Assembly (NCBI RefSeq): GCF_000022265.1
Contig: NC_011979.1
Location: 2,970,001-3,002,000, forward strand
Direction of reading: 5' to 3'
DNA: 32,000 nt
Source of the DNA: Geotalea daltonii FRC-32
Lineage (GTDB): Bacteria; Desulfobacterota; Desulfuromonadia; Geobacterales; Geobacteraceae
The position numbers and the translations under genes were made by a program. Positions 6,001 to 21,999 of the stretch are shown here, piece by piece. Under the pieces are notes generated by a model. It was not told the DNA's origin. It did no database searches and saw only the letters and a list, made by a program, of their open reading frames with translations. The first letter of the stretch is position 1; each line of letters opens with the position of its first letter.

Positions 6001-6283
6001 CAAGACCTTCCATATCAATGGCAAGGTGGACGTGGCATTTGCCCCCATCAGGGTCAAATCAAAGGCCCAGATCCGCGGCGCCGATTACAACAGTTCTCTC
6101 TGGTCGCGGCAGGTGGGTTACAAGGTTTCCGGTGCCTATGACGTGGCATTCAAGACCTTCACCACTGCCACCCAATGGAACGAAACGACTAAGACCTGCT
6201 CCAATATCGCCTGCCACAACGGAGCCAGCGTCAAGTGGGGTGATACGGGCGGCGTGACCAACTGTGCCTCTTGCCACTTCTAG
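2..6283 (+). CDS. Giant (2093 aa) surface-associated multihaem c-type cytochrome: N-terminal membrane anchor, 7 cadherin-like beta-sandwich repeats, FN3-like module, C-terminal domain with about 20 haem motifs
   Basis: A single uninterrupted ORF. The N-terminus is hydrophobic (LGLVMVLTVLVSVFMY). Seven repeats fit the pattern NANLSxLxLSxGTLxPAFxxxTTSYTAxV...TAQDGxTxKTYTVVVTR, one at nt 800-1096 and six in tandem. An FN3-like segment follows (ITVTAPYSG...LQPLTPYFFQATFTD). From nt 3887 I counted 15 CxxCH, 4 CxxxxCH and 1 CxxxCH. The ATG at nt 2 may be the true start, but the window edge prevents checking upstream. Confidence 0.9.
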   Translation: MGVASKLGLVMVLTVLVSVFMYQGLFKPNGISATPTISNAWTNVYSTAASTAAVDVTSSSFSVNTGNTNRLLLVAVQFETSAATTLVSPPTISYGGVNLTQIQNTFAFSGRSHAYMGYLRSSQIPAGLNAVRVQASTGNSNTFQGVQIAVASYFDIDQTNPINDSSQSATASASVTFGSQVDYVANGITVFCATNGGSPATLTSPTGFTGQSGATSTASGSSGFVASSAVHAAPGSYAGTTSVSFGGTTSTRSALVVASLRPATVLSNNADLGSMTISAGELTPAFSSTVTSYTAAVTNGTSSITVTPTLADANAEVTVNGVEVASGTASSPISLAVGDNTISIRVTAQDEVTTKTYTIVVNRAATGGGGSNVTYHTRGLTSIDLIAHGATNVVAEGDSLNGGISYNFTVATNQYRAITSTTAPSGTYRNRLRYGADWSGTTEVLRSYTSKYSSAMTIGANATTRMCVYNRGTVNNCTGYAEIYEYNDNSGIVGARKGITPVSATFSGSTAVNIDLTFNNAAFPVSSGNRVVVYYYLTANTSDPCILYGAAYNASTPAGTTYFTLTESAGGGSSTNANLSNLALSSGTLTPAFASSTTSYTASVANTVTSITVTPTEEDTTATTTVNGVPVESGTASGPISLAVESNTVTVVVTAQDGVTKKTYTVVVTRAPSTNANLSNLTLSTGTLTPAFASGTISYTASVTNSTTSLTVTPTAQDTTATIKVNGITVASGVASAAIPLAVGSNTINTVVTAQDGSTTTTYTVVVTRAPSTNANLSSLTLSNGTLIPAFASGTTYYTASVTNGTTSVTVTPTVQDSTATVTINGVSVASGTPSGAIPLSVGSNTINTVVTAQDGSTTKTYTVVVTRAPSTNANLSNLALSAGTLTPAFASGTTSYAASVSNATSTITVTPTVQDATATITVNGVAVTSGTASVPFALVVGANTLNTVVTAQDGATTKIYTVMVTRAASTNANLNNFALSSGTLSPAFASGTTSYTASVSNATSTITVTPTAQDSTATIKVNGVAVTSGTASVPFALVVGANTLNTVVTAQDGTTTKTYTVVVTRAPSTNTNLSNLVLSAGTLSPSFASGTTSYTASVTNATSSITVTPTVQDTTATIKVNGATVASGSASGAITLTVGSNTIDTQVTAQDGTTIKTYTVVVTRAAPVINSTTASALTFSAVTRSSITVTAPYSGDADNDNSCVIRWGTSSGSYPNVATATKTGSAYVATISSGLQPLTPYFFQATFTDSDGVSGSPVSGTQSTAANGATSPLMHNGANLGTKYNGGNWGVDYTCATCHSRVPTSNIKKVMTLISGRTVSFLQMTGATNSFGNDGRPRLGKSTNVCEVCHTQTIFHRYSSNPGVDPLPGGYAHKNRLDCTTCHPHNKGFAGSGCDGCHGNPPTTANIDNSNNTGMVWSPEPTGATNPVGPGGHSVHESRGIKCDACHNGNTMSDVSYTIQMGFNINGTNWTGFPGSAAFGTFSARTPTNNKYSFVNSNPGTMVRQSPSGRNSCNVYCHGNWAGANGNLTASWEGGSAQAQCGACHRATAGNPPTNGSHLAHAGASPNLRLGCDKCHGTHTNNTHANGTVTWDLTSISTSARYNGALSGSTNAIAPSSSYQTCSNLYCHSTVQPNGGTGNPASYFTPKWGDSATVSGCGACHTDMQASGTGNHLKHTAKYSCTICHNAAGDNSTKHADNYIDVAFSGAGTGTSYTQARTLAGSDGYGTCSTISCHGSGASSTAWGNTLNCGGCHLIANLKGAHGKHINTAALPTLYNYTANRSTTIGYNFGCSNCHPLDVLTKHVDGYIDVTLNATNTGNGGSVGYLRSRNSATADGLAPSKGASGIYGTSGASVRCSASYCHSNAYAGNQKFIDSPDWYGSYTGTDKCAMCHGNSPNANDPTNQPGSPAHYSKNFLGFANISSGHVIGIHAKNIFTGRFGLAAVGNTAVGSHGNASTSSTINCNMCHYSTVTTYANDKNKACAPCHSSTPKNPAELIADKTFHINGKVDVAFAPIRVKSKAQIRGADYNSSLWSRQVGYKVSGAYDVAFKTFTTATQWNETTKTCSNIACHNGASVKWGDTGGVTNCASCHF
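1721..3502 (+). repeat. Six in-frame tandem repeats of exactly 297 bp (99 aa cadherin-like modules) inside the giant CDS
   Basis: Repeat starts (TCS ACC AAY RCC AAC CTG) fall at 1721, 2018, 2315, 2612, 2909 and 3206, each 297 nt apart. An identical 29-mer, acctacacggtggttgtcaccagggcgcc, recurs at three repeat junctions. Confidence 0.95.
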
Positions 6284-8755: not shown

Positions 8756-9736
8756 ATGAAAGTTTTTCTGTCACATGCTTCATCCGAAAAAAAGATGGCG
8801 AAGACTTTGCGGAGAAAGTTAGAGGTTGCCGGGCACGAGGTATCAACTTCAGATTCAATGGAGCAAGGAGATGACATTACCTCAGCCATTGGTAAGTTGA
8901 TTGAGCGTGCGGAAGCCTTCGTCATTATTGTTTCCCCTAAAGGTCTCGGTAATGAACGGCTGATGTGGGAGTGGAGAACGGTACTGGAAAATTCGTGGAA
9001 GGAGCAGGGGAGACCAATCTTCGGGGTCCTCGTGGGTAATGTGGTTCCGCCACCGTTCCTAATGGGGAGGCAGCTTGTAACGATTTCCTCCCTGGATGAT
9101 ATCGATACTGCCGCTGAACAACTTCTGGGGCGCCTTCAAGGAAATCCGATTGACGAAATGGTCGTTGAAGATCTTAAGGCGAGAGGCAGGGAGATCATTT
9201 CTCATTTATCGAGCGAGATCCAAAAATTCGAGCCAAGCCCGGAACAACTAGAAAAGCAGCGGAAACGGCTTCAAGAAAAGATTCATGAACTTTCGGCTGC
9301 ACCGGCCAGTGGGGACCTCGCACGGCTGAACCTGAAGCTGGTCAATGTGATCAAGACATTGGCCGAGAAAGGGCTGCAGGTAGATGGTGCAATTCCGTTA
9401 ATGACTAAGTCGCTTGAAATAATGGAACAGCTTCAGAATACTTCCCCGGAGCAACGGGCTGCGCTACGGACGAGGATTGCGCGGGAAATGGAAAAGGCAG
9501 GTGATTTCCAAGGTGCGCTTGAGCAAGCGTGTCGAGCGCTGCAGGTTTGTGTAGAAGAACTTGATAAGAAAGGCCCTGCTGATACGGAGTGTGACGATAA
9601 CGTTCCGGCCCTGGGATCCCTTCTTGAGCGGATCAAGGAGACTGTCGGGGAGGAAAATGTCCGTGCGGGCCGTTCCCTTGTCTCTTCATTAATTAGCAGA
9701 GCAGCAGACGGCAAAAGCAGGGGGGGGCAACAATGA
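8756..9736 (+). CDS. TIR-domain protein with long helical (coiled-coil/TPR-like) C-terminal region
   Basis: The N-terminus reads MKVFLSHASSEKKMAKTLRRKLEVAGHEV...AEAFVIIVSPKGLGNERLMWEWRTVLE. This matches the TIR pattern (beta-A FLSH, then W-E in the alpha-C position). An RBS (CAGGAG) lies upstream. The stop overlaps the next start (ATGA). Confidence 0.75.
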   Translation: MKVFLSHASSEKKMAKTLRRKLEVAGHEVSTSDSMEQGDDITSAIGKLIERAEAFVIIVSPKGLGNERLMWEWRTVLENSWKEQGRPIFGVLVGNVVPPPFLMGRQLVTISSLDDIDTAAEQLLGRLQGNPIDEMVVEDLKARGREIISHLSSEIQKFEPSPEQLEKQRKRLQEKIHELSAAPASGDLARLNLKLVNVIKTLAEKGLQVDGAIPLMTKSLEIMEQLQNTSPEQRAALRTRIAREMEKAGDFQGALEQACRALQVCVEELDKKGPADTECDDNVPALGSLLERIKETVGEENVRAGRSLVSSLISRAADGKSRGGQQ

Positions 9737-10365
9737 GTTACAAATTCCCTCATCCTGAGCTTCCCAATCCCGACAGTGAGAAATCGATTTTTATCAATTG
9801 TCCCTACGACTCCGAATATGAGCCCTTTTTCGATGCCATCATCTTTTCGGTAGTTGCATCTGGCTTCATCCCGCGAAGCGCCAAGGAATCCGAAATGATT
9901 GCTGTCAGTCGAATTGAAAGAATTCTGCATGCTTTATACACGTCCAAGTATTCCATCCACGACTTATCGAAATGTCGGTATGAAGGAAACCAAATGCTGG
10001 CTCGTTTCAACATGCCGTTGGAACTGGGTCTGGCGATGTCTCGGAGATATCCGGGGGATGGGAAGATCCTGCATAACTGGTTGGTTCTCGTTCCCACTGA
10101 CGCCCCTTACAGCAAATTCGTCTCCGATCTGTCCGGTTTCGATCTGAAGCAGTATCCTGGAAATGAAACTGAATTGATGAGAGCTCTGTTGGCCTGGTTG
10201 ATGGTCCTTCCTGGAGCCCTACCCAGGATCTGCCCAACCCCCGTCATAGAGAATTTTTTGGATTTCAAAGTCCAGAAGAAAAAACTCAAGGAGGAGTGGG
10301 GTGATGATGTACCGTGGAAATTGCTTGTCGAAGCTGCAAAGGCAACGATTCCTGACTTTGCGTAA
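9733..10365 (+). CDS. Nucleoside 2-deoxyribosyltransferase-like / TIR-like (flavodoxin-fold) domain protein
   Basis: KSIFINCPYDSEYEPFF...YTSKYSIHDLS...ARFNMPLELGLAMS follows the beta1 / alpha / (D/N)xxxELGxA layout of NDT and COG4271-type TIR-like domains. The assignment is motif-level only. Confidence 0.5.
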   Translation: MSYKFPHPELPNPDSEKSIFINCPYDSEYEPFFDAIIFSVVASGFIPRSAKESEMIAVSRIERILHALYTSKYSIHDLSKCRYEGNQMLARFNMPLELGLAMSRRYPGDGKILHNWLVLVPTDAPYSKFVSDLSGFDLKQYPGNETELMRALLAWLMVLPGALPRICPTPVIENFLDFKVQKKKLKEEWGDDVPWKLLVEAAKATIPDFA

Positions 10366-10390
10366 ACCTTAATCCAGAGGAGGAGCTAAA

Positions 10391-11278
10391 ATGTCACAAC
10401 AAGTGCACGTAACATTTATTCACGGCCTTGCCAACAAACCTGCACCAAAAGAGCTTGAGCGGATATGGCTGAATGCCCTTTCTGCCCCTGTGGTTGGTGA
10501 TCCAGGTTTTGATCTTGGAGCTGTCGGCGTAACTGCTTCCTTTGTATATTGGGCTGACCTTTTCTATGACAAGCCAATAGCCGCATCGGATTATGAAGCT
10601 GCAGCCAACCGCGCGGAGGAGCTTGATGCAGCAGTGAAACAGGATGTTAAACCGGGATGGGAAGCGAGCCTTATGCTGAAGTTGGCTGATGGAAATCAAG
10701 CGCTCAAGGATGCCCCGGTCGACGAAAGTACGGATGGATATGAACGGATACCGATCCCTTGGTTCATCAAAGAGCGTATGATGGAGCATTTCGTTCGGGA
10801 GGCCCACGACTATCTGTTCAACACGAACGGTATTAGAGACATCATCCGTCGTCGTGTTTTGGATGATTTTGCAAAGGTAGCGCCAGGGACACGCCATGTG
10901 TTGGTCGGGCATAGCCAGGGGACCTTCATAGGGTATGACGTCCTAACTGACGTGATGGATTGCAAGGAAATCGAAGGCTTCATGACCCTCGGAAGCCCGC
11001 TGGGGCTTGATGAAGTACAGGACAAACTTAACTGGTCCTGCAAAAACGGCTTTCCGTCAAAGTTGAAGGGGGACTGGGTGAACGTTTATGATCCGTTTGA
11101 TGTGATCTCTCGACCCGATCCGGCGCTGGCCAATGACTTCAAAAAGAATGGTACAGAAGCTGTGATCGATGTTAAGGAAGAGAATTGGGGCACGTGGCGC
11201 CACTCGGCAACGAAATACTTCAAGGGACCTAAGCTTCGCGCGCAGTTACGTCGGCTGTGCAAACGGGAGGGTGCCTGA
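10391..11278 (+). CDS. Alpha/beta-fold serine hydrolase (lipase/esterase-like)
   Basis: An RBS (GGAGGAG) lies upstream. The protein has HVTFIHGLANKP, the nucleophile elbow VGHSQGT, then TLGSPLG, plus candidate Asp (YDPFD) and His (WRHS) in the S-D-H order. Confidence 0.75.
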   Translation: MSQQVHVTFIHGLANKPAPKELERIWLNALSAPVVGDPGFDLGAVGVTASFVYWADLFYDKPIAASDYEAAANRAEELDAAVKQDVKPGWEASLMLKLADGNQALKDAPVDESTDGYERIPIPWFIKERMMEHFVREAHDYLFNTNGIRDIIRRRVLDDFAKVAPGTRHVLVGHSQGTFIGYDVLTDVMDCKEIEGFMTLGSPLGLDEVQDKLNWSCKNGFPSKLKGDWVNVYDPFDVISRPDPALANDFKKNGTEAVIDVKEENWGTWRHSATKYFKGPKLRAQLRRLCKREGA

Positions 11279-12795
11279 TGGAGCCGGCGTGTTTCCTGAA
11301 AGAGCTTAGGACTGCGGTAGATGAATTCAGGCACACTGATGTTGGTACTCTTCTTGATCAGGTGAACCTAGACGACTTCGACGGTGGACAAATTAAAAAG
11401 ACGCTTACGATCCTTCGTCGCAAGCGGTTGTTCCCCGAGTTGGAGGCAACAACCAAGAAGCTCATTGCCTGCGGGAAAGAAACTCCTCTGGTTCGACGCC
11501 TGCAGGTTCAAGCTCTTATTGACCAGAACATGATCGAGGAGTCTTTAGGTATATTGCAGGCTCTCCCGACGGAGCACCGTAACGATCCTCGTGAGGGACC
11601 TGAGCTCTGCGGTTTATCTGGTCGGGCATTCAAGCAGCTTTATGTGAATGGCGCGGGACGGGACAATTTGGGGAAAGCGATCCGTGAGTATAAGTCCTGT
11701 TGGACTAATCGTATGGGTGACTATCGCTGGCATGGTATCAATCTTGTTGCCCTCTTGGCACGAGCAGAACTGGATGGGATTGACATACCGGGGGGACCGA
11801 ATAGAGAATTGATTGCCAGAGAAATTCTCGGAGAAATCGACGATCTTGGGCAGAATGCTACCATCTGGGACCATGCTACTGCCATGGAAGCCTCCGTCGC
11901 GTTACTGGACACTGATGGGGCTCTCAGATGGGCAAAGGATTACGTTCGACACCCATGTGTCGACGCCTTTGAATTGGGAAGCACACTCCGGCAGATGAAG
12001 GAGGTTTGGAGGCTTTCAGGTACGGAACTCGGCAATAAACTCCTCCCTGTACTCGAATATGAATTTCTTCAGAGACAGGGCGCAGAGTTACAGGTAACAT
12101 CTCTGGCTGTAGCGGACATCGGCGGGTTTCAGGCGGTCTATGGAAATGAAGCTGCCGTACCGATAGCATGGCTGGACAACATGTTTGAGAGATGCAAGGC
12201 GGTGGGACGGGTCATTCGAACCGGAACCGGTGAGGCGATCGGGAGCGGCTTTCTTGTAAGAGGATCTGAACTGTGTCTGGGTTGGGGAGATGCGCCGGTC
12301 TTTGTTACAAATGCGCATGTGGTCAGCGACCGATCAGAAGACAATGCGCCGCTTCGATCGGGGGATGGATCGGTTGAATTTACCCGTATCTATGGGCGAC
12401 CGAGGGTAGAACTCGGAAATATCCTCCATACCTCTGCCAAAGACGAGCTAGACGTAACAGTGTTGCAGGTTAATCCTCCTTTGGGCACCTCAGTACTCAG
12501 CCCATCGTTTTATCCGCCGGTGGTTCCTGGCGAGGGACAGGCACCGCAGCGTATATACGTTATTGGACATCCTGGAGGACGGGAACTTGAAGTTACCCTC
12601 TACGACAATAGCCTAGTAGCCTGTTCTGACAACCGTTTCGTGCACTACCGCAGCCCGACAGAAGGAGGGCACTCAGGATCTCCTGTTTTTACGAGGGAAT
12701 GGAAAGCTATCGCTGTTCATCATCGGAATAGACAGGAGTTACAGGTAAACGAAGGCGTGTTATTTGGGCCAATCTGTGATGTTCTGAAGATTTAG
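11278..12795 (+). CDS. Helical TPR-like (DUF4071/TRAF-binding-domain-like) N-terminal domain fused to a trypsin-like (S1) serine protease
   Basis: The start ATG shares one nt with the preceding TGA. The C-terminal triad reads in order FVTNAHVV (His), DELDVTVLQ (Asp) and TEGGHSGSPVF (Ser). The N-terminal motifs GLSGRAFKQLY...DYRWHGINLVALLA resemble DUF4071, an assignment made from memory. Confidence 0.8.
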   Translation: MEPACFLKELRTAVDEFRHTDVGTLLDQVNLDDFDGGQIKKTLTILRRKRLFPELEATTKKLIACGKETPLVRRLQVQALIDQNMIEESLGILQALPTEHRNDPREGPELCGLSGRAFKQLYVNGAGRDNLGKAIREYKSCWTNRMGDYRWHGINLVALLARAELDGIDIPGGPNRELIAREILGEIDDLGQNATIWDHATAMEASVALLDTDGALRWAKDYVRHPCVDAFELGSTLRQMKEVWRLSGTELGNKLLPVLEYEFLQRQGAELQVTSLAVADIGGFQAVYGNEAAVPIAWLDNMFERCKAVGRVIRTGTGEAIGSGFLVRGSELCLGWGDAPVFVTNAHVVSDRSEDNAPLRSGDGSVEFTRIYGRPRVELGNILHTSAKDELDVTVLQVNPPLGTSVLSPSFYPPVVPGEGQAPQRIYVIGHPGGRELEVTLYDNSLVACSDNRFVHYRSPTEGGHSGSPVFTREWKAIAVHHRNRQELQVNEGVLFGPICDVLKI

Positions 12796-12862
12796 TTTTC
12801 TGATATTGCACCGTCTAACAATCCCAGAATAGGATTTGCATTGTTACAAGGAGATGTCATTT

Positions 12863-13384
12863 ATGGGACTGCCAAGAACGTTCGTAGGATTCAGCAGCAC
12901 TGATATCAATTATTACCGGCTGATGCAAGCGTGGAAGGCACATGAGCATATCGATTTTGATTTCGCCGATTGCCAACTTAATTCAGAAATCAATTCAGAG
13001 GATGAGACTTACATAAAGCGAAAATGCCGGGAGCGCATCAATCTGGCGGGCAAATACGCGATGCTCATTGGCGAGGATACGCGCTATAAGTATAAATATG
13101 TCAAGTGGGAGGCTGAAGTTGCAATCGAAAAGGGCTGCACGATTATCGGGGTGAACCTTGATGGGTGGAGGCGAATCAATGAAGAAACCTGTCCTCCTAT
13201 TCTAAGAAACAGAGGGGTAATGTTTGTTCCCTTTTCGCCGAAGATTGTTGCACATGCTCTTGACCATGCGCAGCTTCATGATGATAAGAATTGGGAATTC
13301 AAGGACAATGTCTATACACAGTTAGGATATGTACTCGACGGAAACCGCGCTGAGCTGCCACCCAGGCCATTTCCATTTCGGTAA
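12863..13384 (+). CDS. ThsB-like TIR domain protein (DUF1863-type)
   Basis: The start is chosen 9 nt after AAGGAG. Motifs: TFVGFSSTDINYYRLM...YKYVKWEAEVAIEKGCTIIGVNL. The ORF opens at 12836. Confidence 0.7.
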   Translation: MGLPRTFVGFSSTDINYYRLMQAWKAHEHIDFDFADCQLNSEINSEDETYIKRKCRERINLAGKYAMLIGEDTRYKYKYVKWEAEVAIEKGCTIIGVNLDGWRRINEETCPPILRNRGVMFVPFSPKIVAHALDHAQLHDDKNWEFKDNVYTQLGYVLDGNRAELPPRPFPFR

Positions 13385-13463: not shown

Positions 13464-14075
13464 ATGGCCTTATTTCGTGAGTCAACAGTAAGAGATTATG
13501 CCCAAAGAGCTTTGTCTGCTGACAGAATCCGGCGAAATGCATATTCTCTGAGGAAATCAGAAGCCCTGATTTTGGAGTCCATAACTGCGGCTGTGTATGC
13601 GGATCATTTTGACATGTTCCTGTCGCATACTATTCGAGATGCTGAGATAATTTTGGGGATGAAGGAGCTATTTGCGGAAATGGGTTACAAAGTTTACATC
13701 GACTGGATAGATGATCCGCAATTAGACAGGAGAAGTGTCAATAGAAATACTGCTGATAAAATCAGATCGAGAATGCAGCAATGCAACTCCCTGTTTTTCG
13801 TAACAACGCAGAGTTCACTTGATTCGAAATGGATGCCGTGGGAATGCGGATACTTTGACGGTATCAAAAGCAAGGTTGCAATTGTTCCAGTTGTTCAATA
13901 CTCAAGCGATGAAAAATATCGCGGTCAAGAGTATCTCGGGCTGTATCCTTACTGTGAGAAATCACCAAGTAAGGGCGGTAAAGAGTTATTGTACGTGTTT
14001 GAAGATGCTAAGAAGTACCTTCCATATGATGAATGGGTTAAGCAGTCAGAGCCAATAAAATGGTATGAAATTTAA
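13464..14075 (+). CDS. TIR domain protein with about 45-aa N-terminal extension
   Basis: FDMFLSHTIRDAE (beta-A/BB region) and SLDSKWMPWECGYFDG (alpha-C W..E motif). A GGGAG RBS lies upstream. Confidence 0.7.
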   Translation: MALFRESTVRDYAQRALSADRIRRNAYSLRKSEALILESITAAVYADHFDMFLSHTIRDAEIILGMKELFAEMGYKVYIDWIDDPQLDRRSVNRNTADKIRSRMQQCNSLFFVTTQSSLDSKWMPWECGYFDGIKSKVAIVPVVQYSSDEKYRGQEYLGLYPYCEKSPSKGGKELLYVFEDAKKYLPYDEWVKQSEPIKWYEI

Positions 14076-14167
14076 GTGGGACCGATTACGCAAACCAGAT
14101 TGAACAGGCGAGCTTGATCAGAATTACATTAAAAAAGTACGTAACTAAGGAATTAACAGAGAGGAAA

Positions 14168-15331
14168 ATGCGCATAGCTGGCGGTTTCTACAGAGAAAAT
14201 TGTTGCTTGCCTGCCTGGAATGCAGCATTTGGTTCCGGTGGTCGGGCTGCTGCAGCTATATCTAGGCTTTCTCCGGGGACTGTTCTTCATACATATTGTG
14301 AAGAGTCGGAAGACGTGCATATTCATGCGCTTAAGAAGCTTGGCGTGGATGTTCGCGTGAATTCGCGACCTACAAGTATTGTCTTCGCGTATTTTCATCC
14401 GCTGTCTCGACCCCACATTCAACCACCACCAGACATGCTCACCCTGCAACATATAATTACTATCAGCGATGAAGCCGTGTTGCGTTTTGGGTTTTTGGAG
14501 GGTGATGCAATAGTTGATGCAGATCGAGCCGTTTATGACCCCCAGACGTGGCGGAATCCGGCACCATTCAGGGCAAATGGCTCCCGTGCGAACGAGTTGG
14601 CTATTGTTCTTAACGAGCTGGAACTCAAATCCGCGACCGGCTATCAAGCTGAGCTCTCTCTGGCGGCACATCAATTAATTGAAGATCAGCAGGCAGAGCT
14701 TGTTGTTGTGAAGCGCGGAATCTGGGGTGCAACGGTTTACGAGCGGTCGGGGATAGTCACATTAATTCCCGCATATAGATCATCGCGAGTGTTTAAGATC
14801 GGTACAGGTGACGTGTTTAGCGCAATTTTCGCCCACTACTGGGCAGAGAAAAGACTGTCTGCCGCGGAGGCTGCCGATTTAGCGTCTCGGGCTGTTGCAC
14901 AATACTGCAACAGCGGCCAGTTACCAATTGATCCTGCCGAATTGGGTCAGTTTGCACCCATTCACTGCGGAACGGCAGGGACGGTTCTACTTTTGGGGGT
15001 GGCTGGTAGTCTTGGCCAGCGATACACAATGGAAGAAGCCCGTTTTGTCTTGAAAGGACTCGGCGTGGAGGTTTGCTGTCCTGTTCTGGATGGTGAATTG
15101 AGCTATTCAGCCTGTGCCGCGCTCATTCTTGCAGAGGGTGCAGATGCGGAGATTATCAGGAGCATTGAAAGCGAACCATTGCCAGGTTTACCCATGGTTG
15201 TATTGCAGGAAAAAGGTGTGCGATGTGATGAACTATTGAAAGTCCCTGCTTTAGAGAAAGCTTCAATTGTCGATGATTTTACAACGGCGATGTATACGGT
15301 GACATGGGCCGCATTAGAAACTGATAGCTGA
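14168..15331 (+). CDS. PfkB/ribokinase-family sugar or nucleoside kinase with an extra C-terminal domain of about 100 aa
   Basis: GSGGRAAAAISRL (PfkB N-terminal Gly motif) and FKIGTGDVFSAIFAHYW (the GxGD catalytic-base motif). The ATG at 14168 follows GAGAGGAAA. The ORF opens at a TTG at 14114. Residues after about 290 (TVLLLGVAGSLGQ...) have no counterpart in minimal ribokinases. Confidence 0.7.
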   Translation: MRIAGGFYRENCCLPAWNAAFGSGGRAAAAISRLSPGTVLHTYCEESEDVHIHALKKLGVDVRVNSRPTSIVFAYFHPLSRPHIQPPPDMLTLQHIITISDEAVLRFGFLEGDAIVDADRAVYDPQTWRNPAPFRANGSRANELAIVLNELELKSATGYQAELSLAAHQLIEDQQAELVVVKRGIWGATVYERSGIVTLIPAYRSSRVFKIGTGDVFSAIFAHYWAEKRLSAAEAADLASRAVAQYCNSGQLPIDPAELGQFAPIHCGTAGTVLLLGVAGSLGQRYTMEEARFVLKGLGVEVCCPVLDGELSYSACAALILAEGADAEIIRSIESEPLPGLPMVVLQEKGVRCDELLKVPALEKASIVDDFTTAMYTVTWAALETDS

Positions 15332-15344
15332 GGAAATCACACAG

Positions 15345-16748
15345 ATGGCAGACATATATATTGTGTATGCTAAAGAGAACAAAAAAATAGCAATAATGCT
15401 ATTTGAACTGTTGTCTCAGCAATGGGATGTCTGGATAGACAAAAAAATAGTCGGTTCCTTTCGTCAGGCAATAGAAAAGGAATTACCAGGCTCTGGATGT
15501 GTTGTCGCAGTAAACTCCATGGCAGCACGCGTGAAGGCTACCTATGCTGCAGAGTTGCAGATTGCAGAAAACTACAAAGTTCCCATGATACCTGTAAGAC
15601 TTGATGATTCTGATCTTCCTTACCCATTCGGCGAAAACAGTCATGTTGACATGCAAGACTGGACAGGCGAGGCTGATCACAGCGGAATTATGGAATTAAA
15701 GTGTAAATTGGCATCTGTTGTACCGCCTAGGGTACCTCCTCAACGTCCCAATGCGATAGCTGGCGGAAAAATTCCTTTACCCAATTTATTCATGTCAGTT
15801 TCTTCATTTGAAACACAAATATCACCTGCCGGAGCAGTCAGCGTACTACGGACATTTGAATCAAAAACTATTTTAGTTTCAGCCTATGATTTGGTGCCAA
15901 GATATAAGAAAGACCCTCAAGGCATTATAGATGAGTTGAAAGAGTATCAAGATAATGGCGGTTTTATATTGCTGGACTCTGGAAGCTATGAACAGACACG
16001 TTTTTCAAAAGGAAATTGGCAAAAACAAAAATTATGGAATGTGCTTCACAAAGTGCCGCATGATTGGGCTTTCTGCTTTGACATATTGAAACCGAAACAC
16101 AAGCCAGAAATGGCAATTAGCGAAATAATCGAGGCTGTAGAAAGAGAAAAAGAGTATACCAAGAGCGCTGTACTGCCCATTGTCCATGCTCCAAAATTAA
16201 AATATGGCGGTTACAAGCTAACACATTTCCCTAAGATAATCTGTGAAATTTCAGAAAAACTTCAACCGCCGTTGATAGCAGTACCTGAACGAGAATTAGG
16301 GGAGGGAATCGTTGCCAGGGCAATGGCCATACAGAGCATTAGAAAAGAACTCGATAAATTGCCATTCTACCAACCCCTCCATATTCTAGGAACAGGCAAT
16401 CCATGGAGCATACCTGTTTTTGTTGCTGCAGGCGCTGACTCATTTGATGGCCTTGAGTGGTGCAGAATGGTGGTAGATCGTGATGTGCATCGACTTCACC
16501 ATTTTCAGCATTTTGATTATTTCGTTTGCCAAAAGGGGAAAGCTGAATCACAGATTGTAAAGACAGCTCTTGATGGTAATGATTTTCAAGCAAAAGTTGT
16601 TTTCCATAACCTTGATTATTACTCTTCATTCATGGTTGAAATGAGACAATATTTAGCTGAAAATGATCTTCAGTCATTTATGGTTGGAATAATGGGGAGC
16701 CAGGCAGTAAAGCAATTAAAACAAGAAATTAAAGGGTTGTTTAGATGA
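15345..16748 (+). CDS. Fusion protein: N-terminal TIR domain + C-terminal tRNA-guanine-transglycosylase-fold (TGT/DpdA/Cap10-like) domain
   Basis: TIR part: DIYIVYAKENKKIAIMLFELL...ATYAAELQIAENYKVPMIPV. TGT part: GFILLDSGSYEQ (compare TGT LTDSGG[FY]Q) and LHILGTGNPWSIPVFVAAGADSFDGLEW (compare YLMGVGxP...GxDMFDC). I could not find the CxCxxC...H zinc motif. The gene lies 13 nt after the PfkB stop. Confidence 0.75.
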   Translation: MADIYIVYAKENKKIAIMLFELLSQQWDVWIDKKIVGSFRQAIEKELPGSGCVVAVNSMAARVKATYAAELQIAENYKVPMIPVRLDDSDLPYPFGENSHVDMQDWTGEADHSGIMELKCKLASVVPPRVPPQRPNAIAGGKIPLPNLFMSVSSFETQISPAGAVSVLRTFESKTILVSAYDLVPRYKKDPQGIIDELKEYQDNGGFILLDSGSYEQTRFSKGNWQKQKLWNVLHKVPHDWAFCFDILKPKHKPEMAISEIIEAVEREKEYTKSAVLPIVHAPKLKYGGYKLTHFPKIICEISEKLQPPLIAVPERELGEGIVARAMAIQSIRKELDKLPFYQPLHILGTGNPWSIPVFVAAGADSFDGLEWCRMVVDRDVHRLHHFQHFDYFVCQKGKAESQIVKTALDGNDFQAKVVFHNLDYYSSFMVEMRQYLAENDLQSFMVGIMGSQAVKQLKQEIKGLFR

Positions 16749-17449
16749 ATACTTCTAGCAATAGATTGAAAAATGCCGTTGCTGCTATCTGTCCTGACAT
16801 CCGTGATCGCGTAAGTAAAGCTGTAATTCCTACAGATGAGAAACGCCTCTGGTGGGAGTTATCTTCATGCATCCTGAGCAGCCAAGTCCCATATCCCCTT
16901 TCTACTGCTGCTGCGAATGCAATCAACAATGATGGCATTTTACATGACAAGTGCGTAAGTGCTACGAAACGAGCCAAGCGTTTGGAGGAGCTTTTGATCA
17001 CTCCCGTAGAGGTTGATGGCAAACAACGAGCATATCGCTTTCCTGTTGCACGAGCGCGTCAGTTGGCTGCTGCACATAGTGTGGTGATGGATAGTAAATG
17101 CACACTTCGTGAGCTCGTTAAGAGTTTCGCAACTGCCACTGAAGCCAGATGTTGGTTTGTGAAGCATGTGCCGGGTATCGGTCCGAAGCAGGCAAGCATG
17201 TTCCTGAGAAATGCCGGGGTTAGTTATGATCTGGCAATTCTGGATCGGCATGTGCTGAATTATATGACGAAGCTCGGAATGTATTCCGGTGATAACTATT
17301 CGATCTCCAGCCTTGCACAATATCGCCGCCATGAGGTTGAGCTGAAAAAACATGCTGAAGAGTTGGATTGTCAGGTCGGATTTCTTGATTGGGCTATTTG
17401 GATTGTGATGCGTGTTGCCAATCGTGTCCCGGAGGTTGCCACTGTATGA
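16745..17449 (+). CDS. HhH-GPD DNA glycosylase, Ogg2 (archaeal-type 8-oxoguanine glycosylase)-like
   Basis: VPGIGPKQASMFLRNAGVSYDLAILDRHVLNYM carries the helix-hairpin-helix GIGxK plus the downstream Asp typical of Ogg2 enzymes. ATGA overlaps occur at both ends. Confidence 0.75.
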   Translation: MNTSSNRLKNAVAAICPDIRDRVSKAVIPTDEKRLWWELSSCILSSQVPYPLSTAAANAINNDGILHDKCVSATKRAKRLEELLITPVEVDGKQRAYRFPVARARQLAAAHSVVMDSKCTLRELVKSFATATEARCWFVKHVPGIGPKQASMFLRNAGVSYDLAILDRHVLNYMTKLGMYSGDNYSISSLAQYRRHEVELKKHAEELDCQVGFLDWAIWIVMRVANRVPEVATV

Positions 17450-18036
17450 GCATCGTGACCTTGGTTTCCGGTGGACTTGATTCTACGTTGATTGCCAAAC
17501 TCGCCCAAGAAGAGGGCCTTATCCAGCATCCGCTATTTGTCGATTATGGTCAGAGGGCTCGCGATCAGGAACTGGCTGCCTGCCGCCGTGGCATGAGCGA
17601 ACTTGGTTTGCCGGAACCAAGGGTGGCTGATCTATCCGGTTTTGGGGCGCTTATACACTCAGGCCTTACTGATTCGTCACTTGATATAGTCAAGGATGCC
17701 TTTACGCCGGGTCGTAATATGCTGTTTCTCCTCATTGCAGCAGCGTATGCGGTTCAGGTAAAAGCAGACGCAATTTCAATAGGGCTTCTTCACGAAAGTA
17801 CCAGCCTATTTCCTGATCAAACCAGTGCATTTCTACGTGATGCCGAAGTACTCATCAGACGTTGCATGAACAGGGATATCAAGCTGCTCGCTCCGCTTGC
17901 CTCATTCCTCAAAACAGATGTAGTTGCCCTTGCGAAGTTGAAAAGGATTGGCGCTACCTATTCTTGCCACACAGGGAATGAGGAAACATGCGGTACATGC
18001 ATAGCTTGTCGGGAATTTGAGACGGTGGAGGTTTAA
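17446..18036 (+). CDS. QueC-like PP-loop ATPase (7-cyano-7-deazaguanine synthase family; Cap9-like)
   Basis: MSIVTLVSGGLDSTLIAK carries the SGGxDS PP-loop, and the C-terminal Cys cluster is CHTGNEETCGTCIACREF (C-x7-C-x2-C-x2-C). The start overlaps the OGG stop (ATGA). Confidence 0.8.
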   Translation: MSIVTLVSGGLDSTLIAKLAQEEGLIQHPLFVDYGQRARDQELAACRRGMSELGLPEPRVADLSGFGALIHSGLTDSSLDIVKDAFTPGRNMLFLLIAAAYAVQVKADAISIGLLHESTSLFPDQTSAFLRDAEVLIRRCMNRDIKLLAPLASFLKTDVVALAKLKRIGATYSCHTGNEETCGTCIACREFETVEV

Positions 18037-18037
18037 G

Positions 18038-18502
18038 ATGGGTGGCAACGGTGGTGGCGGTTGGAGCAGCCTTGGCGATTTACGGGCACTGGAGGAAAAG
18101 GCTAAAGCTGCACTTCAGGGCGGAAAGCGAAATGTGTTTATCAGCTTTGCCACAGAAGACATGGACGAGGTCAACCTCCTGCGTGCTCAGGCTAAGAATG
18201 AGAATAGTGATATTGAGTTTAACGATCATTCTGTGCAGGAACCGTACGAAAGCGACCGGGCCGAATATATACGGCGCAAAATCACAGAGAGAATTAACCG
18301 AACTTCGACAACAGTTGTTTACCTCTCGCAAAATACAGCACAGAGTAAATGGGTTAGGTGGGAAGTCGAGAAAAGTTTGGAGTTGGACAAAAGAGTTATT
18401 GCAGTGCATGCAGGGGATAAATTTACCGGAGACAAACCCTCGTGGTTTTCTGAAGGCATTAAAGTAGTATCTTGGTCCAAGCTTGCTGGTGAGTTGACGT
18501 AA
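18038..18502 (+). CDS. ThsB-like TIR domain protein with Gly-rich N-terminal tail
   Basis: The ATG follows GGAGG and lies 1 nt after the QueC stop. The protein starts MGGNGGGGWSSLG, then NVFISFATEDMDEVNLL ... SKWVRWEVEKSLEL. Confidence 0.75.
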   Translation: MGGNGGGGWSSLGDLRALEEKAKAALQGGKRNVFISFATEDMDEVNLLRAQAKNENSDIEFNDHSVQEPYESDRAEYIRRKITERINRTSTTVVYLSQNTAQSKWVRWEVEKSLELDKRVIAVHAGDKFTGDKPSWFSEGIKVVSWSKLAGELT

Positions 18503-19089
18503 TGGTTATAGCGAAGTGTCGTGTCACGCCTGCTATTGCTGCTCTTGCTGGTCGCCGGATTGATGTCTCGGATGCAACTATTCCTCGATTTCCACTACTT
18601 GAGGTTCAACATGTGTATAACAAGCTCCTTTATCGCTTCCGCCGAGAGAATATTCAACATCTTGTCTGCTCTGCAGCATGTGGCGCAGACATCCTTGCAC
18701 TAGAAGCAGCGAGGGAATTGGCAATTCCAGCGACAGTTGTCCTTCCCTTCTCGCCTGATATCTTTCGAGAAGTTTCCGTTACCGATCGACCAGGGGCATG
18801 GGGCAAGCGGTTTGATCATCTTGTGCAGGAAGCCAGTGATCGAGGCCGCCTTATAGACCTTCAACTTGAGGTCAGTGACGAGAACGCATTCACTGTAACC
18901 AATCACCGGATAATTGAATCTGTACTAGACCTTAGGTTTACTCGAAAGTTGGCATTTGTTGTATGGGACGGGCGGTCGCGTGGAGAAGGTGATTCTACGG
19001 CTGAATTTCTCAAAATAGCTTTGTCGCACGGACTGGAGAAAAGATGTGTTATGACAACAGGAAAGAGCTGCAGTGAAATAGTAGAATGA
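18502..19089 (+). CDS. Stand-alone SLOG-superfamily (LOG/YpsA/DprA-like Rossmannoid) domain protein
   Basis: LVCSAACGADILALEAARELAIPATVVLPF resembles the GxGxD...G-IP motif of YpsA/SLOG. FVVWDGRSRGEGDSTAEF resembles the LOG PGGxGTxxE motif. There is a TAATG overlap with the preceding TIR gene. Confidence 0.5.
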   Translation: MVIAKCRVTPAIAALAGRRIDVSDATIPRFPLLEVQHVYNKLLYRFRRENIQHLVCSAACGADILALEAARELAIPATVVLPFSPDIFREVSVTDRPGAWGKRFDHLVQEASDRGRLIDLQLEVSDENAFTVTNHRIIESVLDLRFTRKLAFVVWDGRSRGEGDSTAEFLKIALSHGLEKRCVMTTGKSCSEIVE

Positions 19090-19206: not shown

Positions 19207-20058
19207 ATGACAGAACTATTCTCCCCACCCCATGACAGGGTAACCCTGCGCAACAGCTTACGCGAAGCCATCGGCAAGACGAGGCGCGATGCCGCGATTT
19301 TCGCCGTTCTTACGGTGATCCTGACACCGATCTTCTTAGCCGGCGCAACCGTTGTCCTCATATTTGCCCTGGCCTTTGTCGATCTGCCGCTGGTCGATAA
19401 TCTCGGCTATGAACGATCTATTGTGACAGGGGTCAACCTTGCACTGGCCTTCATGGCGGCTTCATATTTTCTTAAGCCCAAGGAACCTTATCAGCGGCAC
19501 AAAAGCGATGAAGCGTGGCTGATGATTGCACTGGCCTTGTACTGTGCTCTGTTCCTCTTGTCCTACGGCACGAGCCTGTCCCATTCGCATCCCATCGGCT
19601 TCTGGTCATTGTACCTGGGGATAGCTCTGACCATGCTTGGGTGTATCGGCCATGCATACGAACCACAGGAAGACTATTACCTGGGATGGCTTTCTGGGCC
19701 GGTCCTCGTTGATAATCCATTTACTATTCAGGACGATATTGATCGAGCCCATGTGTCTCTGGGCTTCGCGGTAGCTCTGGCCAATCTGGTTTTGACATCC
19801 TACGATGAAATTTTCGGCAGCAAATGGCTTTGGCAGGGGCTAAAGGAGTCAGAAATATCGGCTTCTGTAGAATTTCTGGAAGCACTGGCAATCAACGATG
19901 GCAGCCGTGCCCGGTCTGTAGTGGCAAAAGTCGGCAAAACTTCCTCCCTCGGGATGATCCGCGCCCTGGTGAAGCTGGAGATGATCAGGATCAATAAAGG
20001 CGTGGTGCGGCTCAGCTTGAAGGGAAGGGAATTTGTCGGTGTTAAGGCCTTTGGGTAG
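19207..20058 (+). CDS. Multi-pass membrane protein of unknown function with soluble C-terminal domain of about 90 aa
   Basis: At least four hydrophobic segments (AIFAVLTVILTPIFLAGATVVLIFALAF; IVTGVNLALAFMAASYF; WLMIALALYCALFLLSY; FWSLYLGIALTMLGCIG). The C-terminus LGMIRALVKLEMIRINKGVVRLSLKGREF looks like a winged helix. Confidence 0.6.
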   Translation: MTELFSPPHDRVTLRNSLREAIGKTRRDAAIFAVLTVILTPIFLAGATVVLIFALAFVDLPLVDNLGYERSIVTGVNLALAFMAASYFLKPKEPYQRHKSDEAWLMIALALYCALFLLSYGTSLSHSHPIGFWSLYLGIALTMLGCIGHAYEPQEDYYLGWLSGPVLVDNPFTIQDDIDRAHVSLGFAVALANLVLTSYDEIFGSKWLWQGLKESEISASVEFLEALAINDGSRARSVVAKVGKTSSLGMIRALVKLEMIRINKGVVRLSLKGREFVGVKAFG

Positions 20059-21324: not shown

Positions 21325-21630
21325 CTAAGCTGCATTTCTGAGAGGTTTCACTTCTTGCTCGATTCGCTCAGCCAAAGTGATTTCAGCACATTCGAGATCG
21401 TATTGGGCTTGAAGATTCATCCAGCTTTGGGCGTCTGTGCCGAAGAACCGGGCAAGGCGCAAGGCGGTGTCGGCAGTGATGGCCCGTTTGCCGGCGCAGA
21501 TTTCATCGATACGGCGTTGGGGTACGCCGATGGACTTGGCAAGCCTATAGCGGGTAACGTTTAGCGGCTTTAGAAAGTCTTCAAGGAGAATTTCTCCAGG
21601 ATGTACCGGGGGAAGATCGCGTTTTATCAT
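21325..21630 (-). CDS. higA: HigA-family antitoxin (XRE-type HTH)
   Basis: MIKRDLPPVHPGEILLEDFLKPLNVTRYRLAKSIGVPQRRIDEICAGKRAITADTALRLARFFGTDAQSWMNLQAQYDL is a canonical HigA sequence. The ATG (CAT at 21628-21630) is preceded by AGGAG. The longer ORF to 21810 was rejected. Confidence 0.9.
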   Translation of the reverse strand: MIKRDLPPVHPGEILLEDFLKPLNVTRYRLAKSIGVPQRRIDEICAGKRAITADTALRLARFFGTDAQSWMNLQAQYDLECAEITLAERIEQEVKPLRNAA

Positions 21631-21640
21631 AGAAGCTCCT

Positions 21641-21922
21641 TTAGTGGTAATCGACGATTTCGACGTCCGTTGCATTTCCGTCTTGCCAGGTAAAACAGAT
21701 GCGCCATTGGTCGTTGATTCGGATGCTCCACTGGCCGGTGCGGCTCCCTGAAAGTTGCTCAAGCCTGTTGCCTGGTGGTACGCGGAGAAAATCCAGGGTA
21801 GTGGCGCCATGAATCTGTTTTAGCTTCCGTTGGGCGATACGCTGCACATCCTGTGGCAGCTTTCCGGAAAAGCGGCCGTGAAAAAGCTTTTCAGTCTCTT
21901 TACAGGCAAACGTCTTGATCAT
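21641..21922 (-). CDS. higB: HigB-family (RelE-fold) mRNA interferase toxin
   Basis: MIKTFACKETEKLFHG...LPQDVQRIAQRKLKQIHGATTLDFLRVPPGNRLEQLSGSRTGQWSIRINDQWRICFTW matches the plasmid-maintenance killer family. The toxin-first order with a 10-nt gap to higA is typical. Confidence 0.9.
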   Translation of the reverse strand: MIKTFACKETEKLFHGRFSGKLPQDVQRIAQRKLKQIHGATTLDFLRVPPGNRLEQLSGSRTGQWSIRINDQWRICFTWQDGNATDVEIVDYH

Positions 21923-21999
21923 GGGAAAATAGTACTGGGAGACGTTAGTATTGTCAAGCGGTAGTATGTTAAAGAAAAACACCAAAGAGTAGCAACTTC

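Follow-up and report, generated by a model that had tools for sequence, protein, structure and literature searches.

Can the N-terminal nucleobase conjugation known from type IV cyclic oligonucleotide-based antiphage signaling systems (CBASS) also act on a TIR enzyme? The question was raised by a 32,000-nucleotide stretch of the Geotalea daltonii FRC-32 genome (NC_011979.1, positions 2,970,001 to 3,002,000; hereafter the window, numbered from its first letter), in which a small TIR gene directly follows a gene for a QueC-like protein. In type IV CBASS, Cap9 ligates 7-carboxy-7-deazaguanine to Gly2 of the cGAS/DncV-like nucleotidyltransferase (CD-NTase), and Cap10 binds the modified N-terminus (Wassarman et al., 10.1101/2025.04.06.647259). 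An earlier note on this DNA had described that chemistry correctly and had proposed the small TIR protein as the equivalent substrate. We call this 154-amino-acid ThsB-class protein gTIR (18038-18502); it is 100% identical to the "DUF1863" protein of the same organism. As set out below, we consider it probable that deazaguanylation of Gly2 primes or restrains this Thoeris-like TIR.

The gTIR gene lies within six tightly coupled plus-strand genes (14114-19089) encoding, in order, a PfkB-type kinase, a TIR-TGT fusion, an OGG-like protein, the QueC-like protein, gTIR and a SLOG-fold protein. The TIR-TGT and OGG-like genes meet in an ATGA overlap, and the ATG of the QueC-like gene (17446-17448) overlaps the TGA of the OGG-like gene (17447-17449). 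The QueC-like frame ends with TAA at 18034-18036, a single G follows at 18037, and gTIR runs from ATG at 18038-18040 to TAA at 18500-18502, confirming the one-nucleotide spacing described in the earlier note. The gTIR stop and the SLOG start then share a TAATG overlap. Counts from a promoter and terminator scan were the same as in shuffled sequence and were uninformative for the operon limits.

The glycine-rich N-terminus of gTIR

The N-terminus of gTIR reads MGGNGGGGWSSLGDLRALEEKAKAALQGGKR and is followed by NVFISFATED, the beginning of the TIR core. Its first residues, MGGNGG, fit M(G/S)G(G/S)GG, the published acceptor motif with which all type IV CBASS CD-NTases begin and in which a G2D substitution, or deletion of the motif, abolishes defense (10.1101/2025.04.06.647259). 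For the tail statistics, the best 120 homologs were pooled with 150 representatives clustered at 50% identity. An MGG start was present in 146 of the 223 sequences with a recognizable first beta-strand, and both Gly2 and Gly3 were 100% invariant in these 146 tailed homologs. Positions 4-8 were variable but rich in Gly, Ser and Asn, as would be expected of a flexible linker that is recognized by its end, and the extension was 28-45 amino acids long. In most of the tail-less relatives, as in ordinary ThsB proteins, 2-12 amino acids precede the first strand. All of the best 120 homologs were tailed and all but six began with Met-Gly-Gly; the exceptions were upstream start calls in P0066, P0074, P0089 and P0096, the variant MGNGGGG in P0050 and MGGSSS-GGW in P0028. 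Across 45 unique orthologs drawn from both locus architectures described below, MGG was 99% conserved. The tail is thus a conserved property of orthologous proteins, a point that the earlier note had asked to be checked.

The tail was also specific to gTIR. Among 884 crudely called open reading frames (ORFs) from 52 loci, 32 had MGG plus a Gly-, Ser- or Asn-rich start and all 32 were gTIR, while none of the other ~850 ORFs in those loci had such a start. The other TIR genes of the window (starting at 8756, 12836, 13464 and 15345) lack the tail, again in agreement with the earlier note, and so do the extra ThsB genes found in 25 of the related loci. In Mesorhizobium sediminum (L040, 10001-10321), the small TIR matches query residues 28-134 only and its upstream frame has no MGG start; this copy may be degraded, with the rest of the core intact.

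We next consider the start codon itself. A Shine-Dalgarno sequence precedes the ATG (Table 1), and the orthologs carry a GAGG- or GGAG-type site at the equivalent position. The orthologs also place their start at the MGG codon, several of them using GTG there. No Shine-Dalgarno sequence accompanies the alternative TTG further 5' at 18017, and the next in-frame methionine is M42, after the first beta-strand, so that a downstream start would break the fold.

Behind the tail, gTIR is an ordinary ThsB-class TIR. Pfam assigned ThsB_TIR (PF08937) to residues 34-125 (E 5.5e-25), and profile searches of the PDB matched the Bacillus cereus TIR 8fz9 and ThsB (6lhy/9b7d), which were also the best Foldseek matches (8fz9, 9b7d and 6lhy). 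These profile matches all begin at residue 31, and residues 1-32 on their own gave chance matches only in the PDB. W108 and E109 are invariant, and E109, the WxxE glutamate of a WVRWE motif, is the putative catalytic residue. In an AlphaFold2 model built with 39 homologs, residues 1-19 had predicted local distance difference test (pLDDT) values below 50 and the TIR core began at residue 31; DSSP placed a helix at residues 15-27 of this model. L18, E19, A22 and L26, which lie on one helical face, are at least 90% conserved in 45 orthologs of both architectures. gTIR is therefore a ThsB-class TIR with a 30-residue addition, consisting of an unstructured MGG(N/S/G)GGGG tail and a short amphipathic helix. 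In the type IV CBASS enzyme CdnD, helix alpha1 follows the tail and docks into both Cap9 and Cap10 (10.1101/2025.04.06.647259); the model of gTIR suggests the same layout of disordered tail and helix.

A few homologs had unusual compositions. P0137 fuses a TIR_2 domain resembling the one in the TIR-TGT protein straight to a small TIR without the tail, which is a possible Rosetta-stone hint of cooperation between the two TIR types. P0148 and P0234 have the appearance of deletion chimeras, combining the N-terminal half of TIR_2 or TGT with the C-terminal half of the small TIR, and P0129 reads from the C-terminus of QueC into an MGG-TIR.

The QueC-like protein and its coupled enzymes

The PP-loop of the QueC-like protein, S8-G-G-L-D12-S13, aligns with S18/D22/S23 of Cap9 (9nto) and is kept in all 45 paired orthologs. 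Further motifs are YGQRARDQE (YGQ(x)5E, without the canonical His), GRN, PLASFLK and CH(x)6CGTCIACRE, the last giving C(x)7CxxCxxC. This arrangement reproduces the motif pattern and spacing of the Cap9 signature, Y/FxQ(x)5E, RN, PF(x)4K and CE(x)6CxxCxxCxD (PMC13329287). The canonical QueC motifs YxQxHxxE and YPDC are absent, the His being replaced by Ala and the pocket reading FPDQ, and the scores fell below the thresholds for true QueC in both TIGR00364 (120.6, cutoff 150.3) and NF008317 (81 vs 378). The label "7-cyano-7-deazaguanine synthase" that RefSeq gives to the orthologs, including the one in L052, is probably wrong for these genes.

The clade seems not to have been singled out in the 2026 survey of the QueC family (PMC13329287). 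There, Cluster 9 contains Cap9, with ~55 members and no TIR among the listed neighbors. Cluster 4, which has a PfkB neighbor in 89%, was considered as the home of our protein and rejected: its listed neighbors include no TIR, OGG or TGT, and its spacing is YGQ(x)6E and CH(x)5CxxCxGCxK, as against YGQ(x)5E and CH(x)6CxxCxxC here. The neighbor in Cluster 4, which the authors of the survey treated as metabolic, is a fusion of PfkB with Nuc_deoxyrib_tr. A PfkB partner hence recurs with two separate non-canonical QueC clades.

The TIR-TGT protein consists of a TIR_2 domain (residues ~1-110), which keeps E70, and a TGT-like domain (~165-467). D211/S212, H346 and D368 of the latter align with D73/S74, H226 and D248 of Cap10 (9ntn) and are invariant in four orthologs. 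Residues 370-467 contain no CxCxxC...H zinc motif. The same holds for Cap10, which lacks the tRNA-type zinc site and cannot bind tRNA.

The PfkB-type kinase retains N167/E170 (NxxE) and the G230-T-G-D233 motif, both invariant, and because these are kept it is probably active. Its orthologs suggest that the true start is M19 (nt 14168), at the position of MRIAGG/MHIAGG. Pfam found nothing in the C-terminal ~120 amino acids, and a profile-profile comparison of this part with the hydrolase-like N-terminal domain of TPR-S proteins revealed no relationship (probability 0.4%).

The coupling of these genes was examined in 51 related loci, of which 46 represent one genome per species and five came from exact-sequence look-ups. 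The QueC-like gene lies directly 5' of gTIR in every one of them, preceded by the OGG-like and TGT-like genes. The gap between the QueC stop and gTIR is usually 1-2 nt; it is 0-3 nt in 33 of the 45 loci in which it could be placed, and in the remainder the two genes overlap by up to 11 nt or are separated by up to 11 nt. Taxonomically, the loci come from Desulfuromonadota, Alpha-, Beta- and Gammaproteobacteria, Acidobacteriota, Methylomirabilota and Hydrogenedentota. Architecture A (40 loci and this window) comprises PfkB, the TIR-TGT fusion, OGG, QueC and TIR; architecture B (11 loci, ~50% identity, found also outside Proteobacteria) has an unfused TGT and lacks PfkB. The kinase gene accordingly accompanies the fusion in 40/40 loci and occurs in 0/11 without it. 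In the smallest systems, composed of SLATT, TGT, OGG, QueC and gTIR, gTIR is the single TIR, so only gTIR would be available to feed the effector there. Neither the window nor the 51 loci contain a CD-NTase, and a ThsB-type TIR occupies that position.

The family is far from rare: 811 clusters were found at 90% identity, and the 46 species-level genomes include Salmonella, Klebsiella, Pseudomonas and rhizobial plasmids. The operon in Salmonella or Klebsiella (L001 type) consists of PfkB, TIR-TGT, OGG, QueC, TIR, ThsB and SLATT. Large plasmids can carry the complete core, namely Rhizobium sophoriradicis pCC511_4 (L052) and 12 other rhizobial plasmids. The Salmonella version gave no match by megablast against complete E. 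coli genomes.

A proposed mechanism and the competing explanations

Taken together, the acceptor-type motif, its conservation, the gene coupling, the disorder of the tail and the retained catalytic residues argue for gTIR as the equivalent of the modified CD-NTase, by the following route. Methionine aminopeptidase would remove Met1 and expose the alpha-amine of Gly2. The QueC-like ligase, acting like Cap9 in an ATP-dependent manner, would adenylate 7-carboxy-7-deazaguanine supplied by the host queuosine pathway, and attack of the Gly2 amine on the adenylate would leave an N-terminal 7-amido-7-deazaguanine (NDG) adduct. The TGT-like domain would bind this base in its conserved pocket and hold the TIR poised or inactive; the TIR-TGT protein may also move the TIR to an acceptor via D368, a step that the OGG-like glycosylase would probably reverse or limit. 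Upon phage infection, the released or activated TIR would cleave NAD+ into a cyclic ADP-ribose (cADPR)-type signal, which would switch on the TPR-S/trypsin protease and the SLOG protein here, and SLATT pores or TPR-S hydrolases elsewhere. The substrate assignment of the earlier note is thus supported, but its suggestion that this would newly extend the modification from CD-NTases to TIR enzymes had already been anticipated (10.64898/2025.12.03.692087).

Several observations weigh against this proposal. The region of Cap10 containing the base contacts D122/K154 gave no HMMER alignment between our protein and 9ntn, and the invariant FCFD246 aligns instead with "FLDI" of ArcTGT. The helix behind the tail was modeled at a pLDDT of ~47-56, which is low confidence. 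In the PDB, canonical QueC (2pg3, E 3.5e-17) is closer to the QueC-like protein than Cap9 is (9nto, E 7e-11). The Cap9/Cap10 model accounts neither for the additional TIR domain of the Cap10-like protein nor for the obligatory PfkB. Within the literature that uses the term "deazaguanylation", no study tests a TIR, and no adduct on any TIR has been reported by mass spectrometry or structure.

A further such point is the nucleobase pocket, which raises the alternative that the QueC-like enzyme does ligate the N-terminus, with another carboxylate or nucleobase that is then read by the TGT-like pocket. The sequence is H(x)5FPDQ here vs H(x)4YxDC in Cap9 (and YPDC in canonical QueC), the spacer being one residue longer and Cys being replaced by Gln; without the Cys, the ligated base or acid could differ. 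QatC, a QueC-family ligase with a Gly2 substrate whose acid has not yet been identified, offers a precedent that speaks for this alternative and against deazaguanine. The pocket nevertheless keeps its aromatic residue and its Asp, which correspond in Cap9 to Y115, which stacks on the base, and D117, which hydrogen bonds with it (10.1101/2025.04.06.647259). Moreover, the TGT-like domain retains the Asp/Ser pair and the catalytic His and Asp that handle 7-deazaguanine in Cap10, and the conserved core contains no gene for the biosynthesis of another acid. We therefore regard a different acid as unlikely.

For architecture A alone, a variation on deazaguanylation can be envisaged, in which the free N9 of NDG would be glycosylated with an NAD+-derived ribosyl or ADP-ribosyl group, through base exchange by the TIR or TGT-type transglycosylation, and the kinase and OGG would complete a write/erase cycle. 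This is a speculative idea to which we give little weight. Were it true, Cap10 would transfer NDG to a nucleotide acceptor, and priming would yield a protein-linked dinucleotide.

Alternatively, QueC, TGT and OGG might act on nucleic acid or free bases in a Dpd-like manner, with the tail providing no more than flexible linkage or non-covalent docking. TGT and OGG are classically families of nucleic-acid enzymes, and the RefSeq name and the best structural scores of the QueC-like protein, which are those against canonical QueC, point in the same direction. Against this stand its scores below the QueC equivalog cutoff, the missing canonical His and the Cap10-like absence of the zinc motif from the TGT domain. 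Pfam and PADLOC scans of the neighboring ORFs revealed no DpdB/DpdC, no queD/queE and no other preQ0 synthesis genes at the locus, so that it does not qualify as a Dpd-type system. A mere linker would also not keep Gly2 and Gly3 invariant in 146 proteins, nor would it always trail QueC so closely. We consider a role on nucleic acid quite improbable.

Finally, miscalled start codons sometimes produce Gly-rich N-termini of low complexity, and MGxxxS resembles the eukaryotic N-myristoylation motif, but a start-call artifact or a signal for another N-terminal modification or for membrane targeting is highly improbable given the position of M42 inside the TIR fold, the Shine-Dalgarno sequences here and in orthologs, the GTG at the same codon, the occurrence of the tail only next to QueC-like genes and the fact that no N-myristoyltransferase is known from bacteria.

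A putative defense island, its predicted outputs and known systems

The core and its surroundings are listed in Table 1.

Table 1 Positions of the gTIR operon, its elements and neighboring genes in the window
Feature	Position	Strand	Evidence
Alpha/beta-hydrolase-like protein, 295 aa; system membership tentative	10391..11278	+	Weak Abhydrolase_6 match
TPR-S sensor domain + trypsin-like protease, 512 aa; candidate effector	11257..12795	+	Pfam TPR-S, Trypsin_2
Additional ThsB-type TIR, no Gly-rich tail	12836..13384	+	PADLOC ThsB E 2.9e-41
Second additional ThsB-type TIR, tail-less	13464..14075	+	PADLOC ThsB E 9.8e-65
PfkB (ribokinase-family) kinase-like protein	14114..15331	+	Pfam PfkB
TIR_2 + TGT-like fusion, Cap10 equivalent	15345..16748	+	Pfam TIR_2, TGT; PADLOC TGT E 2.7e-26
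OGG-like N-glycosylase, 234 aa, Cap11 equivalent	16745..17449	+	Pfam Ogg-HhH E 6.4e-26; 51/51 loci
QueC-like ATP-dependent ligase, 196 aa, Cap9 equivalent	17446..18036	+	Pfam QueC E 2.5e-37; PADLOC QueC E 9e-27
Shine-Dalgarno GGAGG of gTIR, 6 nt 5' of ATG	18027..18031	+	Read from sequence
gTIR, 154 aa; candidate deazaguanylation substrate and signal-producing enzyme	18038..18502	+	Pfam ThsB_TIR
Gly-rich tail of gTIR, residues 1-9, MGGNGGGGW	18038..18064	+	Fits M(G/S)G(G/S)GG
Predicted gTIR helix, residues 15-27, LRALEEKAKAALQ; candidate docking helix	18080..18118	+	DSSP
Stand-alone SLOG-fold protein, 195 aa, Geob_2719	18502..19089	+	AlphaFold2 fold, Foldseek

The SLOG-fold assignment was made because the best structural matches of the protein were YpsA/DUF1273 (2nx2, E 2e-6), ShosA and DprA; it has no Pfam match, and its AlphaFold2 model had a mean pLDDT of 93.5. 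The protein is a candidate sensor or processor of a nucleotide signal. Homologs lie 3' of gTIR in L003-5, L011 and L014, and a 677-amino-acid protein on the minus strand of L036 (11652-13685) fuses a hydrolase-like domain, TPR-S and a SLOG domain related to that of the window, which links the SLOG protein functionally to TPR-S effectors. Orthologs of the TPR-S/trypsin protein adjoin the core in L007 and L043, and in L043 the pair of hydrolase and TPR-S/trypsin genes recurs 3' of the core. Elsewhere, SLATT_3 and SLATT_1 proteins occur in 31 loci. TPR-S proteins of 409-467 amino acids with an N-terminal "TRAFs-binding"/hydrolase-like domain belong to a neighbor family found in 35 loci (C0), which, being built by single linkage, also takes in SLOG-only and shorter hydrolase-like proteins, partly via the L036 fusion. 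Adjacent candidate effectors with nucleotide-sensing domains, as in Thoeris systems, are represented here by the SLOG protein and the TPR-S/trypsin protein, and in most of the related loci by SLATT or TPR-S proteins. In type VII/VIII Thoeris, effectors of the SLATT and TPR types are responsive to canonical cADPR, and by analogy a cADPR-type signal is a reasonable inference for the gTIR loci. As noted above, extra tail-less ThsB genes accompany the core in 25 loci; for the one at 12836, the start of the longest ORF is likely too far upstream, since the orthologs begin with MGLPRTF (nt 12863).

The region looks like an acquired defense island. Its GC content is 0.41-0.52 vs 0.53-0.60 in the flanks, and a HigB/HigA toxin-antitoxin pair follows it (21325-21985). 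On the opposite flank (2-6283) lies the terminal part of a gene for a giant cadherin-like, multihaem cytochrome protein of a kind characteristic of Geobacter. A fifth TIR gene at 8756 (TIR_2 with a weak TPR-like region, 326 amino acids) is followed by ORFs of 210 and 295 amino acids; the genes of 8756-11278 may make up another TIR system or else belong to this island. The 283-amino-acid predicted multi-pass membrane protein at 19207-20058 was rejected as an effector, as it has no counterpart near the core in the other 51 loci, and it is probably outside the system.

How does this locus relate to known systems? Type IV CBASS shares with it the Cap9, Cap10 and Cap11 families in one operon, a Gly-rich substrate start followed by a helix, the Cap9 motif spacing and the Cap10 residues. 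In type IV CBASS the substrate is a CD-NTase, whereas here it would be a ThsB-class TIR, and the signal should hence be an NAD+ derivative and not a cyclic oligonucleotide. In addition, OGG is present in 51/51 loci here but in about one third of type IV CBASS operons, 40 of the 51 loci add an N-terminal TIR on the Cap10-like protein together with a PfkB kinase, and the QueC pocket differs as described. Because it has no CD-NTase, the locus is not a type IV CBASS; it is a CBASS accessory module joined to a Thoeris-type core.

Systems of the same kind, with ThsB and an effector accompanied by cap9/cap10/cap11, were noted briefly, on bioinformatic grounds, in a preprint whose text describes such Thoeris operons and proposes a type IV CBASS-like mechanism (Yirmiya et al., bioRxiv, Dec 2025, 10.64898/2025.12.03.692087). 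For another operon, its AlphaFold3 predictions gave an interface predicted TM score (ipTM) of 0.79 for ThsB-Cap10 and 0.62 for ThsB-Cap9. The concept of a deazaguanylated TIR is therefore already in the literature as a prediction. The text of that preprint, its figure excepted, mentions no N-terminal glycine motif, TIR-Cap10 fusion or PfkB kinase, and the supplements searched do not name the Geotalea locus. Nor did the literature searched yield a comparative-genomics report linking TIR with QueC, TGT and OGG. Within that literature, and as far as the preprint's text and searched supplements go, the explicit acceptor motif on a TIR, the TIR-Cap10 fusion and the PfkB kinase that always accompanies the fusion are undescribed.

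Other systems share single traits. QatBC likewise pairs a QueC-family ligase with a substrate whose long N-terminal tail is disordered and whose Gly2 (MGTS) is essential; in contrast, QatC is ~20 kDa larger with a remodeled active site, QatB is not an enzyme of known fold, and there is no TGT- or OGG-like partner. Type VII/VIII Thoeris, in which the partner of ThsB is either ThsH, a SLATT effector, or ThsI, a hydrolase that contains TPRs, has the TIR class and the SLATT/TPR-S effectors in common with the gTIR loci, but consists of two genes without a priming module, whereas here TPR-S is fused to a trypsin-like protease and SLOG follows the TIR. In type II CBASS and Thoeris with Cap2/Cap3, operon enzymes likewise prime a signaling enzyme covalently at a flexible Gly-containing terminus; there it is the C-terminus and the conjugation is ubiquitin-like, while in gTIR it would be the N-terminus, with unrelated enzymes and chemistry.

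Deazaguanylation has been shown on one enzyme class, the CD-NTases, and is suspected for QatB. The study that defined it counted 49 type IV CBASS operons (10.1101/2025.04.06.647259), and with the 811 clusters found here the TIR version could turn out to be the better model to work with. Most deserving of further study is the PfkB/TIR-Cap10 architecture. Both the fusion and the kinase offer concrete clues to the acceptor that receives the modified N-terminus from Cap10. If gTIR is modified in the same way as the CD-NTases, Cap9, Cap10 and Cap11 would be a portable priming device that can be placed on unrelated signaling enzymes, as Cap2 and Cap3 are.

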